A DNA stretch of 64,000 nucleotides from an uncultured Candidatus Saccharibacteria bacterium (GTDB lineage: Bacteria; Patescibacteriota; Doudnabacteria; UBA920): the NCBI GenBank assembly GCA_964505635.1, contig CAZDIP010000004.1, forward strand, positions 7,198 to 71,197, given 5' to 3'. The position numbers and the translations under genes are program-made. How positions within the stretch are numbered: position 1 is the stretch's first letter; every line of letters starts with the position of its first letter. The notes under the pieces are model-generated. The model saw only the letters and a list, made by a program, of their open reading frames with translations, ran no database searches and was not told where the DNA came from. Below are positions 6,547-59,425 of this stretch, in pieces.

Positions 6547-6852
6547 ATGAAAGTATTTGATGAATTAACAGGCGGAGTATATAGAAAAGGCGAATCGAGA
6601 GAAAGTTTGCTAAAAAGAGCCAAGGAAAAATTTCCGGATCAATTTTCTAAAATAGACTCGTTAAAAGAATTTTATTTTGACCCTATTTTAAAAGAGAGAT
6701 TTTTAGATTTAGAGACCAGCCTTATGCAGTGTGTGGAAAACGGATACCAACACAGGGAACTCTCAGAAATGCTTAATGAGTGGGAAAAAGAGTATGAATT
6801 TTTAAAAACACATGCAAAGCGACTTGATTCAAATTCTCAAAAAGCGGCTTAA
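6547..6852 (+). CDS. Hypothetical protein (101 aa)
   Basis: ORF track only; overlaps the start of the next gene by 41 nt. Confidence 0.35.
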   Translation: MKVFDELTGGVYRKGESRESLLKRAKEKFPDQFSKIDSLKEFYFDPILKERFLDLETSLMQCVENGYQHRELSEMLNEWEKEYEFLKTHAKRLDSNSQKAA

Positions 6853-8011
6853 ACATCCAATCTTAATTAAGAAAAAAGAAAACCTGCTGTATTTAACCGG
6901 CAGGAGCTTTGATTACAGGGCGGAGGAATATCTGTTAATTTTACCCCTCACCCCCACCCTCTCCCACAAGGGGAGAGGGGGAGATAGTGTGATTGGGTTT
7001 GGCAGCGGGCTTGAGCAGATAGATTGGGTCAAAAAGTCAGATAGGCTAAAGAACATCGGCCAATATTTAAAAGGTTATAAACAGTTGGATATTGAGTACG
7101 GGTTTACTTATGGGGAAGGAGAATATTTGAAATATAAGATTTCCTCCTTCGCTAAAGCTATGGCGGACAAGTCAGATTTAGGATATAAGATTTTGGTGAA
7201 ACCGGAAAGAAGTTTGGTTGATGTTATGAGGCAGATAAAAAGCATGGAGGAACTGTCTAAAATAAAAAAATCAATGCAGATTGTAGAGAAAGTATTTGCG
7301 CTTGTAAGAAAAGAAGTTAAAAAATCGGGGATGACGGAGAGAAAATTGGCTGATTTTATTACCAAGACTGGTTATAAATTTGGCGCACACGATGTTTCTT
7401 TTCCAGCAATTATAGCAAGCAGGGCAAATGCTGCTATACCTCACCATGTCCCATCAAACAAGTTTTTAAAAGCGGGGGAAAGCATAATTATAGATTTTGG
7501 TTTTAAGTACAAAAATTACTGCAGCGACTTTACGCGTACGGTGTTTTTAAAAAAAGTGCCCAAAAAATTGGAAATTGCCTATAATCAAGTAGAAAAGGCG
7601 TATAATGGAAGTATGGAGTATATCTCAAATCCATCCCGAGCGCGGCCGAGGGATCCCTCAAAACAAGAAAAAGGGATTCTTCCCCCGCATCAAGTGCGGG
7701 GTCTGAATGGTAATACAATTACCGGTAATGATGTTTATCAAAAAGTTGTTGATATTTTGGCTGAAAAAAAATTAGACAAATATTTTATTCATTCTTTAGG
7801 CCATGGTACGGGTTTGGAAATTCACGAATTGCCCAATCTTTCGCCCGACTCAAAAGATGAACTTAAAAATGGAATGGTTTTTAGCATTGAACCGGGAGTG
7901 TATATCCCTAAATTAGGTGGTATAAGAATTGAAGATTTGGTATATTTACAAAATGGCAAAGTTAATAAATTTATTAATGTTTCAGCGAAACTAAAGGATA
8001 ATATTTTATGA
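6812..8011 (+). CDS. pepP: Xaa-Pro aminopeptidase / M24B family metallopeptidase; contains two repeat-derived in-frame segments
   Basis: Creatinase-like N-domain, then the M24 catalytic core (HDVSFPAIIASRANAAIPHH...DFGFKYKNYCSDFTRT...HSLGHGTGLEIHE...EPGVY...RIEDLV). Repeat copies lie in frame at 6944-6984 and 7631-7710. Confidence 0.85.
   Translation: MQSDLIQILKKRLKHPILIKKKENLLYLTGRSFDYRAEEYLLILPLTPTLSHKGRGGDSVIGFGSGLEQIDWVKKSDRLKNIGQYLKGYKQLDIEYGFTYGEGEYLKYKISSFAKAMADKSDLGYKILVKPERSLVDVMRQIKSMEELSKIKKSMQIVEKVFALVRKEVKKSGMTERKLADFITKTGYKFGAHDVSFPAIIASRANAAIPHHVPSNKFLKAGESIIIDFGFKYKNYCSDFTRTVFLKKVPKKLEIAYNQVEKAYNGSMEYISNPSRARPRDPSKQEKGILPPHQVRGLNGNTITGNDVYQKVVDILAEKKLDKYFIHSLGHGTGLEIHELPNLSPDSKDELKNGMVFSIEPGVYIPKLGGIRIEDLVYLQNGKVNKFINVSAKLKDNIL
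6944..6984. repeat. Family-2 palindromic element (ccctcacccccaccctctccc-acaa-ggggagagggggaga), in frame inside pepP
   Basis: Shares the ctcccacaaggggaga hairpin core with the rpsG copy and the ccctcacccc / gggggaga ends with the nfo copy. Confidence 0.75.
7631..7710. repeat. Family-1 repeat copy B plus adjacent ccccgca-tcaagt-gcgggg hairpin, in frame inside pepP
   Basis: ccatcccgagcgcggccgagggatccc is ~85% identical to the intergenic copies. Confidence 0.75.
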
Positions 8012-9548: not shown

Positions 9549-10493
9549 GTGCTATCTATTGGCTGTCATGTTAGCGCCGCTGGAGGAGTCTGGAACGCGC
9601 CTAAAAATGCGGCTAATTTGGAATGCGAAACTTTTCAAATTTTTACCAGGCCGCCTATGGGCGGACCAGCGCCTAAAATAGATGAAGAAGCAGCGGACAA
9701 GTTTAAGACCGAGATGGAAAAGTATAAGTTTACAGACTTCGTTATTCATTGCCCTTATATTGTTAATTTTGGTTCTGCTAAAAAACCTACATATCACGGC
9801 TCTATTGGTATTGTTTCCGAAGAACTTAAACGGGCAAATAGTTTGGGAGCAAAATTGGTAATGACCCACTTAGGAAGCTTTAAGGACTTAGGGCAAGAAA
9901 AAGGCATGAAGCAGACGCAAAAAGGTTTTGTGGAAGTTTTGGAAAAATATGAAAAGGCATCAAAGAACCCAAAAACCGAATTTTTGCTGGAAATAGCAGC
10001 CGGTAGTGGGGAAGTTATTGGCGACACTTTTGAAGAATTGGCGGAGCTTATGGAACCCTTAAAGAAATTTAAAACTTTCGGGGGAATTTGTTTTGACACC
10101 CAGCATGCTTTTTCAAGCGGTTACGACATTAGAGATAAAAAATCTGTTATAGAGACATTTAAAAAGTTTGAAAAAGTAATAGGCCTTAAGTGGCTTAAAA
10201 TGTCGCACATTAACGACTCCAAAGTGCCTTTGGGCGGCAAGAAAGACAGGCATGAGCATATTGGCGATGGGGAAATAGGGAAAAAGGGGTTTGAGGCGCT
10301 GATTGGATATTTTGAAACCCTCACCCCAAAAACCCTCTCTACCCCTCGGCTTCGTTCGGGGCATCAACGCCAGGCGGGGGAGAAAAATAATGTTGCTTTC
10401 GGCGGCTTTCCCTTGATTCTTGAGACAGAGCATGATAAAGTCAAAAAAGATATAGAAATATTAAAAAATATAAGAAATAAAATTTATGTTTAA
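9549..10493 (+). CDS. nfo: Endonuclease IV (AP endonuclease, TIM-barrel) with a ~28-aa repeat-derived in-frame insertion near the C-terminus
   Basis: GTG start; MLSIGCHVSAAGG...HCPYIVN...MTHLGS...DTQHAFSSGYD...DRHEHIGDGEIG...PLILET. Insertion TLTPKTLSTPRLRSGHQRQAGEKNNVA relative to E. coli Nfo. Confidence 0.85.
   Translation: MLSIGCHVSAAGGVWNAPKNAANLECETFQIFTRPPMGGPAPKIDEEAADKFKTEMEKYKFTDFVIHCPYIVNFGSAKKPTYHGSIGIVSEELKRANSLGAKLVMTHLGSFKDLGQEKGMKQTQKGFVEVLEKYEKASKNPKTEFLLEIAAGSGEVIGDTFEELAELMEPLKKFKTFGGICFDTQHAFSSGYDIRDKKSVIETFKKFEKVIGLKWLKMSHINDSKVPLGGKKDRHEHIGDGEIGKKGFEALIGYFETLTPKTLSTPRLRSGHQRQAGEKNNVAFGGFPLILETEHDKVKKDIEILKNIRNKIYV
10317..10386. repeat. Family-2-related element inside nfo, in frame
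   Basis: accctcaccccaaaaaccctctct...cgccaggcgggggaga. The internal ccaggcgggg also resembles the intergenic hairpin at 36795-36815. Confidence 0.65.
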
Positions 10494-37043: not shown

Positions 37044-37457
37044 ATGCCTACTATAAATCAGCTCGTACGAAAAGGCCGCAGGCCTTTAAAGGCCAAGAGC
37101 AAATCTCCGGCGCTTCAGCGCAGGATAAACTTGATTAAAAATCGGGTAATTCCTTTAAAAACCGGTTCGCCTTTTATGCGCGGGGTTTGTTTAAAGGTTT
37201 ATACCACCACGCCAAAAAAGCCGAACTCAGCTTTGCGCAAAGTGGCTAAGGTCAAATTGACTAATGGGATGGAAGTTATTGCTTACATTCCAGGCATTGG
37301 CCATAATTTGCAGGAACACTCGGTGGTTATGATCCGCGGCGGCAGGGTAAAAGACTTGCCTGGCGTGCGCTATCATATTGTTAGAGGAAAACTGGACACA
37401 CTAGGCGTTGACGGTCGAAAACGCGGCAGAAGTAAATATGGAGCGAAAAATAAGTAA
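37044..37457 (+). CDS. rpsL: 30S ribosomal protein S12
   Basis: [12 protein letters not shown]...; 137 aa. Confidence 0.97.
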
Positions 37458-37560
37458 AAGGAATGACAAGAATGACATGATTGACCAAGAATGACAAGAA
37501 TGTAAACAATTGAAATCTTGCTCAATCATTTAAATCTTTTAAATCCTGTCAATTAATTCT

Positions 37561-38157
37561 ATGCCAAGAAAATCACGTTCATACGACAAACACACTCCCG
37601 ATCCGGATCCAAAATACGGTTCGGTTAAATATGCTAAATTTATTAACTATTTAATGGAGCGCGGCAAAAAAAATGTAGCCCGCAAGATTTTTTACGATGC
37701 CTTGGAAATAGTGGGGGAAAAGGCGAAAGATTTAGCTAAATCTGCGCCGGTTGCTTCAAAGACCCCCTCATCTGCCGCGTCTAAAGACGCGGCACCTTCT
37801 CCCACAAGGGGAGAAGGAAATAAGGAAAAATCTTTGGACGGAAGACAGGTTTTTGATATAGCCTTAAAAAACATAGCGCCGATTATGGAATTAAAGTCCC
37901 GCCGTATTGGCGGAGCTAACTATCAGGTGCCTATGGAAGTTATGGAACCGCGCAAAACCACTCTTGCCATGCGCTGGCTTTTGATTGCCTGCCGTGCGAA
38001 AAAAGGCGCCCGGATGGCCGAAAAGTTGGCCGCTGAAATTATGGAAGCCTTTAACAAACAAGGCGCGGCTATTAAAAAACGCGAAGATGTTCACAGGATG
38101 GCAGAAGCCAACAAAGCTTTTGCTCACTTTGCTAGGTTTGGGAATAAGAGGAGATAA
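37561..38157 (+). CDS. rpsG: 30S ribosomal protein S7 with a ~38-aa repeat-derived in-frame insertion
   Basis: S7 core (KSRRIGGANYQVPMEV...KREDVHRMAEANKAFAHF). 198 aa versus ~156 typical; inserted segment LAKSAPVASKTPSSAASKDAAPSPTRGEGNKEKSLDGR is encoded by palindromic DNA. Confidence 0.93.
   Translation: MPRKSRSYDKHTPDPDPKYGSVKYAKFINYLMERGKKNVARKIFYDALEIVGEKAKDLAKSAPVASKTPSSAASKDAAPSPTRGEGNKEKSLDGRQVFDIALKNIAPIMELKSRRIGGANYQVPMEVMEPRKTTLAMRWLLIACRAKKGARMAEKLAAEIMEAFNKQGAAIKKREDVHRMAEANKAFAHFARFGNKRR
37775..37817. repeat. Family-2 element inside rpsG, in frame (hairpins gccgcgtc-taaa-gacgcggc and cttctccc-acaa-gggagaag)
   Basis: Seen directly; accounts for the S7 insertion. Confidence 0.8.
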
Positions 38158-38627: not shown

Positions 38628-40751
38628 ATGCCCCGAGAATATCCCATAGAACAAACCCGTAACATTGGCATTATTGCCCACATTGACGCGGGTAAAACCA
38701 CGGTTACCGAAGGTATTTTATACAATACCGGCATGATCCATAAAATCGGCGCGGTGCACGAAGGCGAGACCACGACCGACTGGATGGAGCAGGAACGCGA
38801 GCGCGGAATTACGATTACCGCGGCCGCGGTGACTTGCTATTGGACACCCAGGTTTATTAAACTGGCCGGCGACACCAAGCACAAAATCAACATTATAGAC
38901 ACCCCGGGACACGTGGATTTTACCGTGGAAGTAGAGCGCTCTTTGCGCGTTTTAGACGGCGCGGTTGTGGTATTTGACGGAAAAATGGGCGTAGAGCCTC
39001 AAAGCGAAACCGTATGGCGCCAGGCTGACAAGTACAATGTGCCCCGCATGTGTTTTATTAACAAAATCAACCAGACCGGAGGCGACTTTTACAAGTCCTT
39101 AGACTCCATTCATAAAAGGCTTTCTCCCAACGCTTTTCCTATTCAGCTGCCAATTGGTTTTGAAAAGGAAATTGTTGGCGTAGTGGATTTAATTAACATG
39201 AAGGCTTATACCTACAAGGACTACACTGACAAGGAGTTTGTGATAGGCGAAGTACCGGCTAGTATGATGGAAAAAGCCAAAGAGTACCGACATAAGCTTT
39301 TGGAAAAAGTCGTGGAAAGCGACGACGCTTTAATGGAAAAGTATTTAAATGGACAGGAATTAACCGAAGCGGAATTTTTAACCGCAATTCGTAAAGCCGT
39401 TCAGTCAGCCAAGTTTTTCCCCGTGTTAGGCGGAGACGGGCGCGGGATTATTGTGCAGACTATTTTGGACGCGGTAACTAACTTTTTACCAAGCCCAACT
39501 GACCGCGGGGAAGTAAAAGGCCATGACTTAAAAACCGGAGCCGAAATTATTAGAAAACCCAACGACTCAGAGCCGTTTACCGCCCTGGCGTTTAAAATTG
39601 CCACCGACCCTTTTGTCGGCCGCCTGTGTTTTTTTAGAGTTTATGCCGGGCATTTGGAGGCCGGCAGTTATGTGCTTAACGCCCGCACTGGGGATAAAGA
39701 ACGCGTGGGCCGCATTGTGCGCATGCGTGCTGACCAAAGAGACGAGGTTAAAGAAGTTTTTGCAGGCGACATTTGCGCGCTTGTAGGGCCAAAAAATACT
39801 TTTACCGGAGACACTTTGTGCGACGTAGACAAGCCTGTTCAGTTAGAAGCTATTAAGTTTGCCGAGCCGGTTATAAGTATGGCGATTGAACCTAAAACCA
39901 AAGCAGACCAGGAAAAAATGGGCATTGCTTTGCAAAAATTGGCGGAGGAAGATCCGACTTTCAGGCTTTCCACCAACGAAGAAACCCAACAGACTATTAT
40001 TGCCGGTATGGGAGAATTGCATTTGGAAATTATTGTTGACCGCATGAAGCGGGAATTTAAGGTGGAAGCAAACGTGGGTAAGCCGGAAGTCGCTTACAAA
40101 GAAACCTTTAAGAAAATTGCCGAAGCGGAAAGCAAATACATTCGCCAGACCGGCGGACGCGGCCAATACGGCCACTGCTGGATTCGGGTTGAGCCGCTTG
40201 AACGCGGCAAGGGCTATGAATTCGTGGACGAGGTTGTCGGCGGCGTTATTCCCAAAGAATATATTAAGCCGATAGACAAAGGCATTCAAGAATCGGCCGC
40301 TAACGGCGTGATTGCCGGTTACCCCTTGGTGGACTTTAGGGCTGCGGTGTTTGACGGAAGCTATCACGAAGTGGACTCTAGCGAAATGGCCTTTAAAATC
40401 GCGGGTAGCAAGGCGTTGCAGGACGCGGTGAAAAAAGCCGACCCGATAATTTTAGAGCCGATTATGAAAGTGGAGGTTATAACCCCCGAAGCCAACATGG
40501 GCGACGTAATTGGCGACCTTAACAGCAAACGCGCCCAAATTAACGAAATGATTGACCGCATGCACTTAAAAGTTATAGATGCTTTTGTTCCTTTAAGCGA
40601 AATGTTCGGCTATGCTACCGCACTGCGCAGCATGACCCAGGGCCAGGCTTCCTACACAATGGAATTTGACCATTATTCAGAAGTGCCGAAAAATGTTGCT
40701 GCCAGCATTATTGAAAGCCGCGCCGGGATAAATGTCAGAAAAGGAATGTAG
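38628..40751 (+). CDS. fusA: Elongation factor G
   Basis: [17 protein letters not shown], full five-domain length of 707 aa. Confidence 0.97.
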
Positions 40752-59204: not shown

Positions 59205-59414
59205 ATGGCACACGGTGGGCATGGAGGAGAATCGCATAGTAAGTCTGGCGGTGGGGGCGGCTTTTTTCGTAGTATGGTTGAGGGTTTTGTGGATCCGGTT
59301 TCAGAGGCTATAGGCGGTAACGCCCAAAAAATAGTAAATAAGGAAATAAAAGGTTTAATTTCAACCGGCAAGGGTGGGGGTGGCAAGGGTGGGGGTGGTC
59401 ACGGACATCACTAG
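59205..59414 (+). CDS. Small glycine/histidine-rich protein (69 aa)
   Basis: MAHGGHGGESHSKSGGGGG...GKGGGGKGGGGHGHH; low complexity. Confidence 0.35.
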   Translation: MAHGGHGGESHSKSGGGGGFFRSMVEGFVDPVSEAIGGNAQKIVNKEIKGLISTGKGGGGKGGGGHGHH

Positions 59415-59425
59415 TTTAAAAATTC

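Follow-up and report, generated by a model that had tools for sequence, protein, structure and literature searches.

A BoxC/PIT/TMECO-like structured repeat as the probable source of part of a variable linker in ribosomal protein uS7

The rpsG gene (37561..38157, plus strand) of the window, by which we mean the whole 64-kb stretch of DNA analysed, encodes a ribosomal protein uS7 of 198 aa, and the protein poses the question of where its extra residues came from. Solved S7 chains (149-161 aa) match the rpsG product with E-values down to 5e-45, covering residues ~14-56 and ~93-190 and leaving ~57-92 (about 36 residues) unmatched, which bears out the excess length noted in the original prediction. 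It had been proposed there that the extra ~38 residues are one contiguous segment that was inserted in frame as a selfish palindromic element, after the manner of the Rickettsia palindromic elements (RPEs). RPEs are described as small in-frame palindromic repeats in the protein-coding genes, including essential ones, of a reduced genome (Ogata et al. 2000, as cited in PMC3184786). They lie at sites that tolerate them and lengthen the protein by a peptide segment while its function is preserved.

Sequence, fold and genomic position all identify the product as uS7 (PF00177). The PF00177 domain is found on all rpsG homologues (E down to 1e-122), the ordered part of the AF2 model matches S7 chains of the PDB (Foldseek TM-score, target-normalised, of about 0.75), and the gene lies in the str operon between rpsL (37044..37457) and fusA (38628..40751). 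A search of PDB sequences with the linker alone as the query gave no meaningful match. The 191-aa uS7 of Coxiella burnetii is also available as a solved chain (9t0z_G).

The same S7 sequence is present in an independent assembly (locus L001), with a 99% variant in L173; the extra segment is, therefore, not an assembly artefact, and we rejected this explanation. An intein or an intron was rejected too, given that the rpsG ORF is unbroken and that relatives have linkers of every length. A metagenome scan with the full S7 protein was dominated by universal S7 peptide patterns and returned two close relatives only.

A hypervariable linker between helices 2 and 3 of uS7

The unmatched residues (aa about 57-92; 37729..37836, plus strand) connect helix 2 (aa 37-60) with helix 3 (aa 94-105). 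In the AF2 model, built with the alignment of the lineage, aa 61-93 are coil with a pLDDT of 33-41, and an A/P/S/K-rich stretch of variable length and sequence is found at the same place in all 120 best S7 homologues (174-225 aa). A genome scan with the N-terminal S7 alignment yielded 65 loci, which are assigned to Candidatus Doudnabacteria or to unclassified Patescibacteria; the nearest named relatives of the window lineage are Candidatus Doudnabacteria (Patescibacteria). Aligning the S7 proteins of these relatives, as had been suggested, delimits the extra segment between the FYxAL and FDxAL motifs, but does not reveal a single insert: the segment has anything between 18 and 80 aa, and in most of its versions there is no hairpin. 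The shortest form (18 aa) occurs in S7 proteins of 166-170 aa, near those of ordinary bacteria, intermediate forms have 23, 28 or 35-49 aa, and the longest is that of one 227-aa S7. The extra stretch as a whole is, thus, an old, fast-evolving and probably disordered loop of this lineage, and only the 18 codons P69-G86 within it derive from the element described below.

This makes it very improbable that one selfish element of RPE type, inserted recently, accounts for the whole ~38-residue segment. The segment is indeed contiguous, in frame and palindrome-containing, and its core has a second copy in pepP. However, relatives without any hairpin have linkers that are equally long or longer, the repeat structure is limited to 53 nt, the linker just upstream of it is unrelated to any repeat (and 50% identical to that of the related locus L002), and the copy is common to diverged species. 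Its size and architecture are, moreover, unlike those of RPEs, which are roughly 100-150 bp long.

Anatomy of the element and its copies

The element in rpsG occupies 53 nt (37765..37817, minus strand). Hairpin H2 (37795..37817) reads CCTTCTCCC acaag GGGAGAAGG, with arms at 37795-37803 and 37809-37817 and a loop of 5 nt, rather than the acaa given originally. Hairpin H1 (37773..37794), TGCCGCGTCT aa AGACGCGGCA, has a perfect stem with arms at 37773-37782 and 37785-37794, which can be drawn as 10 bp closed by a 2-nt loop or as 9 bp closed by a 4-nt loop. Both perfect hairpins are, then, present as predicted, and they directly abut at 37773-37817, with zero spacer. Such structures are scarce in the 64-kb window, which has only about 25 distinct perfect hairpins of at least 8 bp. 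A 71-nt stretch folds into exactly H1 and H2, with an energy of -33.8 kcal/mol for the sense-strand RNA (z = -5.8) and a z-score of -7.6 for the antisense-strand DNA, and none of 200 shuffles was as good in either case; these energies score the hairpin parts only. A scan of the window for GC-rich islands gave a long list of mostly ordinary coding DNA in which the repeats did not stand out, and Rfam at the gathering threshold found two tRNAs in the window and no match at the element.

Read on the minus strand, the element is CCTTCTCCC-cttgt-GGGAGAAGG-[TGCCGCGTCTTTAGACGCGGCA]-(A)GATGAGGG, where the brackets enclose the 22 nt of H1. The last part is a third block (37765..37772; CCCTCATC on the plus strand and GATGAGGG on the minus strand) that mirrors the purine arm of H2 with T for A, so that 8/9 triads are of the allowed kinds (G.G-C, A.A-T, T.A-T). 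A third block that mirrors the purine arm in these three triads defines the intrastrand triplex motif variously called BoxC, PIT and TMECO (Bachellier et al.; Hoyne et al. 2000; Holder et al. 2015, PMC4666352). On this plan H2 corresponds to the Watson-Crick duplex of the motif, and H1 is nested in its loop 2. Judging from the symmetry of the sequence, we regard the S7 copy as a candidate for triplex formation. On the plus strand the element is translated as PSSAASKDAAPSPTRGEG; when the canonical element is read directly, all three frames of the sense orientation are open, and one antisense frame has a TGA.

The window holds a second copy, of 35 nt, inside the pepP-like gene (6812..8011, plus strand; PF00557, peptidase M24). 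This copy (6945..6979, minus strand) reads CCCTCTCCC-cttgt-GGGAGAGGG-tgg-GGGTGAGGG, has 9/9 triads and fits exactly the published TMECO pattern, CCCTCNCCC N3-6 GGGNGAGGG N3 GGGNGAGGG (Holder et al. 2015, PMC4666352). In agreement with the recurrence originally reported, the 15-mer CTCCCACAAGGGGAG of the S7 copy is found exactly at 6961-6975, where 0.02 matches are expected, and the identity extends to an exact 17-mer, loop included, at 6960-6976. The core is read in pepP in a frame different from that in S7 (LPLTPTLSHKGRGGD).

A third example relates the two. The S7 orthologue P0080 (locus L172) has CCTTCTCCC-ttgac-GGGAGAAGG-cgg-GGATGAGGG, with 9/9 triads and without H1; its loop 2 is the plain CCG of the E. 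coli type B motif, and it departs from the canonical TMECO pattern by one substitution per block, at corresponding positions of all three blocks. H1 is, therefore, a nested addition or loss. H2 and the third block share one plan with the pepP copy and with L172, and H1 occupies loop 2; the two hairpins are, therefore, parts of a single composite element with three blocks, and not two elements.

The pepP copy is not confined to this organism, nor is it fixed at its site. Among pepP homologues, the element is found at the same site (site 1) in the window, P0139 and P0183, in P0126 with a further insertion in the loop, and in P0218 in another frame; it is absent from the closest homologues P0122, P0123 and P0130 and present in some more distant ones. 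The 61-nt stretch of pepP matches 5032/5426 complete E. coli genomes, at a median of 5 places each, and these matches, like those on plasmids of many genera, have 80-95% identity over ~75% of the query. The plasmids include those of Klebsiella, Azospirillum, Aeromonas, Deinococcus and Pseudanabaena.

We counted motifs of this type under a strict definition (8 perfect triads) in 1.04 Mb made up of the window and 67 related loci, and found 42, two of them in the window itself (S7 and pepP). Neither 20 locally shuffled versions of the 1.04 Mb nor the S7 loci of other phyla, 0.55 Mb in all, contained such a motif. The sequences of the blocks vary widely from copy to copy (for example, CCCCTCCTT/AAGGAGGGG/GGGGTGGTT and CCTCCCCCT/AGGGGGAGG/GGTGGGGGT), and each time the third block tracks the purine arm. 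Of the 68 asymmetric pyrimidine-purine hairpins, 40 are followed on one strand by a mirrored block, which is then on the correct side, and none has it on the wrong side; a non-mirrored copy is matched by 8/68. Loop 2 is 3-5 nt long (TTA, CCG, CTA) in about half of the motifs, and in the remainder it is 10-23 nt long and nearly always a GC hairpin, mostly starting with TG, as does H1. Between 14 and 19 of the 42 copies lie in long ORFs, and copies occur in spacers too, on either strand; genic and intergenic copies were told apart by simple ORF length, and a small number are probably misassigned. The strand with the purine motif is the template strand in 16/19 of the ORF-embedded copies. The other copies whose absence would have told against a dispersed repeat are, thus, found in the window and in related genomes, in coding and in non-coding DNA.

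One gene with such copies is that for PurH, in which the linker between the MGS and AICARFT domains has a copy in at least six species. These copies are translated as LTPALSQRERE, LTPNPSPKGRGEG, TLSQREREK or HPLPQGERE, that is, in different frames, indicating that what they have in common is a DNA element and not a peptide. In L118, the S7 linker shows the same two-hairpin composite layout as the window with entirely different sequences, and the PurH of L118 has a second copy with the same blocks as the S7 copy of L118 and another nested hairpin. Likewise, L091 has a second copy of its S7-type blocks 900 nt upstream.

Repeats of other kinds are also found in the S7 linkers of the lineage. The repeat-derived peptides include NPHPSPLPEGEG, for which a complete BoxC-type motif is read in another frame, TPLLKKEG with several variants, and STGSG-type segments; VGEGLKPSPT and GRDGSRPVPT are GTAG...CTAC palindromes at the DNA level, which are present in the S7 linkers of L109 and L101. 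The S7 linker of L116 has a different insert, of 39 nt, between 14-nt direct repeats with 12/14 matches. The S7 linker is a permissive site, at which small structured repeats of several kinds have gathered.

History of the S7 copy and the constraint on it

The 18-codon module is found in the same register in eight S7 genes (the window, P0001, P0002, P0004, P0006, P0024, P0029 and P0005), the products of which are 72-82% identical to that of the window (99% for P0001). The same module in the same register across proteins as diverged as this indicates that the insertion is old. In an ungapped alignment of the eight modules, 82% of the cells pair, compared with 42-52% in controls in which the modules were slid. 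Six stem pairs have changed on both sides among the eight sequences, a number reached by 0/500 shuffles, and in H1 changes on both sides are seen among orthologues at 5/9 pairs. In P0002, for example, GCC..GGC has become GTC..GAC, a compensated change that replaces Ala by Val and Ala by Thr. A T-A pair adjoining the loop of H1 has become C-G in P0004, again with compensation, and in P0029 the pair CCTTCTCCC/GGGAGAAGG has become CCCTCTCC/GGAGAGGG, also compensated (L084 has this variant). The stem of H2 is kept in L002 and L091 while the loops vary.

The element is also more conserved at the nucleotide level than the gene around it. Between the window and L002, the element (37765-37818) has 89% overall identity and 16/18 (89%) identical third codon positions, whereas the gene core has 78-79% overall identity and 50-57% at third positions. 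The compensatory substitutions that change amino acids, together with the conservation of third positions, indicate that it is the nucleic acid that is under constraint, or is repeatedly homogenized, and that the peptide drifts once this lapses. Both hairpins have decayed in P0005, and the element is decaying in the orthologues of L087 and L107. The original prediction held that relatives with the same extra residues and no repeat core would speak for a lineage-specific extension; such a case exists in part, in that P0114 keeps the peptide KGEGNKEK without the hairpin, and we read it as a decayed copy of the element.

Might the structure, then, serve as RNA? A functional structure in the rpsG mRNA, be it a site for protein binding or processing or a translational pause that tunes the synthesis of S7 or EF-G from the str operon, would agree with the very stable two-hairpin RNA fold (z = -5.8), with the covariation of the pairs in S7 orthologues, with the conservation of the element above that of the gene core, and with the presence of the two-hairpin layout in L118 with entirely different sequences. 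Yet the same architecture appears in pepP, PurH and other genes and in spacers, on either strand, most S7 genes of the lineage are without the element, those of L087 and L107 have let it decay, and it has no match in Rfam. The third block, besides, has G, A and T where a purine-motif triplex on template-strand DNA calls for them, and according to Holder et al. (2015, PMC4666352) RNA cannot adopt class II purine-motif triplexes. We, therefore, consider a function in the mRNA quite unlikely. The constraint would instead act on the element as DNA, since a purine-motif triplex on the template strand follows just this G/A/T mirror rule. The third blocks also show A-to-T substitutions that fit such a triplex, which suggests that the symmetry is maintained at the DNA level.

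Another explanation is that the hairpins arose in place, by slippage and template switching within a low-complexity linker coding for Ala/Pro/Ser/Gly/Glu, with near-palindromes being made perfect; in that case codon composition (CCN/TCN and then GGN/GAR) would have led the hairpins to converge on the other copies, with no dispersal. The linker is indeed low in complexity and variable in length in all relatives, and template switching would also produce 'compensatory' double changes without selection. Consistent with such an origin, reading the sequence around the S7 and pepP copies revealed no flanking direct repeat and no clear target-site duplication, and no transposase was found associated with the S7 copy. 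The comparison of loci likewise gave no pair of an empty and a filled S7 site at the DNA level. Convergence, however, accounts poorly for the exact 17-mer, loop included, that the S7 and pepP copies have in common, for a mirror rule that the third block follows across many block sequences and on the correct side only, for the same composite architecture in intergenic DNA and unrelated genes, for the zero motifs in composition-preserving shuffles or in other phyla, and for the match of the pepP copy to a repeat family known from Proteobacteria. An origin in place is, thus, unlikely, and we infer that the S7 element came by insertion, or by conversion from another copy.

Whether this occurred once is a separate matter. 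The neighbour-joining tree of the S7 core has too little resolution to show if the element-bearing genes form one clade, or to tell a single gain from several, so that the element may have been inserted, or converted from other copies, more than once. The genome-specific block variants that the S7 copy has in common with other copies in L091 and L118 point that way. The S7 copy may, accordingly, have been inherited strictly vertically or have been refreshed from other copies.

Taken together, we consider it probable that an old copy of a BoxC/PIT/TMECO-like structured repeat became part of the disordered linker of uS7, and that its DNA structure has been kept since. The linker between helices 2 and 3, being disordered and fast-evolving, would accept nearly any sequence that keeps the frame. 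A dispersed structured DNA repeat, in which a pyrimidine arm and a purine arm are joined by a third block mirroring the purine arm and the second loop contains a nested GC hairpin, would have contributed a copy to the linker in an organism ancestral to that of the window and to several related species. Being free of stops in the three sense frames, the element would simply have been translated, and it may be tolerated because it is stop-free and the loop unconstrained; the peptide is presumably neutral for the ribosome. Afterwards the nucleotide structure, and not the peptide, would have been kept, with stem pairs changing by compensating double substitutions; in other branches the S7 copy has decayed or been replaced. 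The maintenance could be due either to selection for a structure related to propagation or to mechanical correction by template switching.

A wider and more tentative reading is also quite possible: that in Doudnabacteria-like CPR bacteria a family of self-folding triplex motifs, often with a hairpin in loop 2, spreads through the genome and comes to lie, in frame, within loops where essential proteins (uS7, PurH, an M24 peptidase) tolerate it, its three-strand geometry being kept by selection or by a copying mechanism. If so, the coding copies would be a natural experiment in which the DNA structure and not the peptide is conserved, they would provide the first comparative evidence that the geometry of BoxC-type triplexes matters in vivo, and the elements would be a main driver of linker growth in proteins of this genome-reduced lineage.

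Where copies lie in conserved genes, as they do in this very distant and genome-reduced phylum, constraint on DNA structure can be separated from constraint on the peptide, because each base change has a readable effect on the protein; intergenic copies do not allow this. Orthologous coding copies can, in addition, be traced across species. The S7 case shows a route by which a universal ribosomal protein gains a long disordered loop, and suggests that part of the unusual variation in protein length in CPR bacteria consists of small in-frame repeats, as in Rickettsia. Such segments inflate or confuse alignments of the ribosomal marker proteins used for CPR phylogeny.

Comparison with known systems

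BoxC/PIT/TMECO motifs have been known since the 1990s, having been described from Proteobacteria and some cyanobacteria as repeats of intergenic DNA. To our knowledge, neither a function nor a copying mechanism has ever been established for them, and no mobilizing enzyme is known for the family. The elements described here resemble TMECO in their build of three blocks, with a purine arm between a pyrimidine arm and a mirrored G/T(A) third block and with short loops, in being dispersed in many copies (42 motifs, compared with none in the controls), and in having loops that are less conserved than the stems. The mirrored third block gives 8/9 triads in S7 and 9/9 in both pepP and L172, the pepP copy fits the published pattern exactly, and the TTA and CCG types of loop 2 known from E. 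coli are also present in this lineage. They differ from TMECO in that the host belongs to Patescibacteria and in that many copies lie inside genes and are translated. The S7 copy, furthermore, departs from the literal pattern by one substitution per block, at corresponding positions, and by the 22-nt hairpin in loop 2. TMECO was reported from proteobacterial genomes, where it is always intergenic in E. coli MG1655, and in the published search loops were limited to 1-6 nt (Holder et al. 2015, PMC4666352). In contrast, both copies of the window are in frame inside ORFs; an intergenic location is a described property of the E. coli copies and not part of the definition of the family.

In behaviour the elements are like RPEs, as originally proposed: a dispersed, structured palindromic repeat is read in frame at tolerant sites of conserved proteins, with presence and absence among relatives, as seen at site 1 of pepP, in the different frames of PurH and in the predicted-disordered linker of S7. 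By size and host, however, they are not RPEs, and the insertion in S7 is an old one. RPEs are a family of Rickettsia, with a length (roughly 100-150 bp) well apart from the 53 nt (S7) and 35 nt (pepP) of these patescibacterial copies, and a third block of the triplex type is not known to have been described for RPEs. Other small repeats have also been found fused in frame with genes (PMC3184786). REP/BIME and GTAG-type palindromes, which are mobilized by RAYT (Y1) transposases, have in common with the window element that they are short, GC-rich, dispersed hairpins, but the window element has no GTAG head and is built instead of homopyrimidine and homopurine arms with a third block. MITEs have terminal inverted repeats and a target-site duplication, whereas the window element has no termini distinct from the hairpin that it forms.

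Ribosomal proteins of Parcubacteria-type CPR bacteria are known to carry lineage-specific low-complexity additions, such as the Ala/Lys-rich tail of uS19, and uS7 is not listed among the enlarged proteins (Tsurumaki et al. 2022, PMC9297842). In that work, unlike here, the extra regions were not tied to DNA repeats. In the literature on CPR bacteria and Patescibacteria we found no specific description of in-frame palindromic repeats. By sequence, the S7 element thus appears to belong to a BoxC/PIT/TMECO-like variant and not to the RPEs, and what is new about it is the phylum, the location in coding DNA, the hairpin nested in loop 2 and the covariation in orthologous coding copies.

Repeats and repeat-like sequences in PurH, pepP and elsewhere

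The triplex motif, a BoxC/PIT/TMECO-like three-block DNA repeat, was found at one and the same inter-domain linker of PurH in at least six related species, with differing reading frames (L087:5114-5134, L091:4346-4390, L101:1822-1857, L116:3732-3764, L118:3059-3104 and L121:5174-5214; L-handles denote loci of Ca. Doudnabacteria-like Patescibacteria). Around 510 nt downstream, another hairpin is conserved in L101, L109 and L116, with the sequence TCTCCCCC aaa GGGGGAGA.

In pepP (6812..8011), an M24 peptidase-like gene, we noted a second hypervariable site at 7629-7715, ISNPSRARPRDPSKQEKGILPPHQVRGLNGN in the window, where the segment of relatives is missing or very different (0 to ~60 aa) and where several of them have recurring repeat-like peptides such as LPRPSDALGARND. 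In the window copy, positions 7683-7701 form a hairpin with 7 perfectly matched base pairs, CCCCGCA tcaag TGCGGGG.

Elsewhere in the window, a GC-rich island within an ORF (10332-10386; …TLTPKTLSTPRLRSGHQRQAGEK…) contains CCCCTCGGCTTCGTTCGGGG at 10342-10361, which, judging from its sequence, looks like another small palindromic repeat translated in frame. A tandem duplication, CAAGGGTGGGGGTGG CAAGGGTGGGGGTGG, lies at 59358-59415, in a G-rich island with an adjoining stop codon.

Spacers flanking rpsG

The rpsL-rpsG spacer of the window contains direct repeats at 37461-37502: GAATGACAAGAATG occurs at 37461 and again at 37489, while the two copies of AAGAATGACA are at 37468 and 37487. Some relatives with a short S7 have two triplex motifs on opposite strands in this spacer instead (L137:9914-9984 and L138:9905-9976). 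On the other side of the gene, gene callers place a small opposite-strand ORF of 43-80 aa, without a Pfam match, in the rpsG-fusA spacer of several relatives (L002:776-907, L087:10665-10907, L170:781-999, L173:1119-1328 and L086:2057-2275). Because triplex motifs are also present in the same spacer of L085, L104 and L118, repeat sequence may have given rise to these ORF calls as artefacts.

Extra segments in S7

The uS7 of Coxiella burnetii (191 aa; PDB 9t0z chain G, also 9t61 and 9tze) aligns with the window S7 in a single stretch, 8-190 to 7-189, and, given this alignment and its length, may include a similar additional segment at about this position; the 9t0z structure paper makes no remark on an extra segment in this protein.

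Other kinds of repeat were seen in the S7 linkers of relatives. In the S7 of a Doudnabacteria MAG from a palsa metagenome (L116:10001-10684), the linker has a 39-nt insert, PRSTSSGSSATLD, with a 14-nt direct repeat on both sides (AAGAAATTGGACGG / AAAAAATTAGACGG), each copy of which encodes KKLDG; from the sequence, this repeat looks like a target-site duplication. The linkers of L109 (GTAGGGACGGGTC ca GACCCGTCCCTAC) and L101 (GTAGGGGAGGGTTTgaAACCCTTCCCTAC) contain perfect or near-perfect in-frame GTAG...CTAC palindromes, which are REP-like heads of the type recognised by RAYT transposases.
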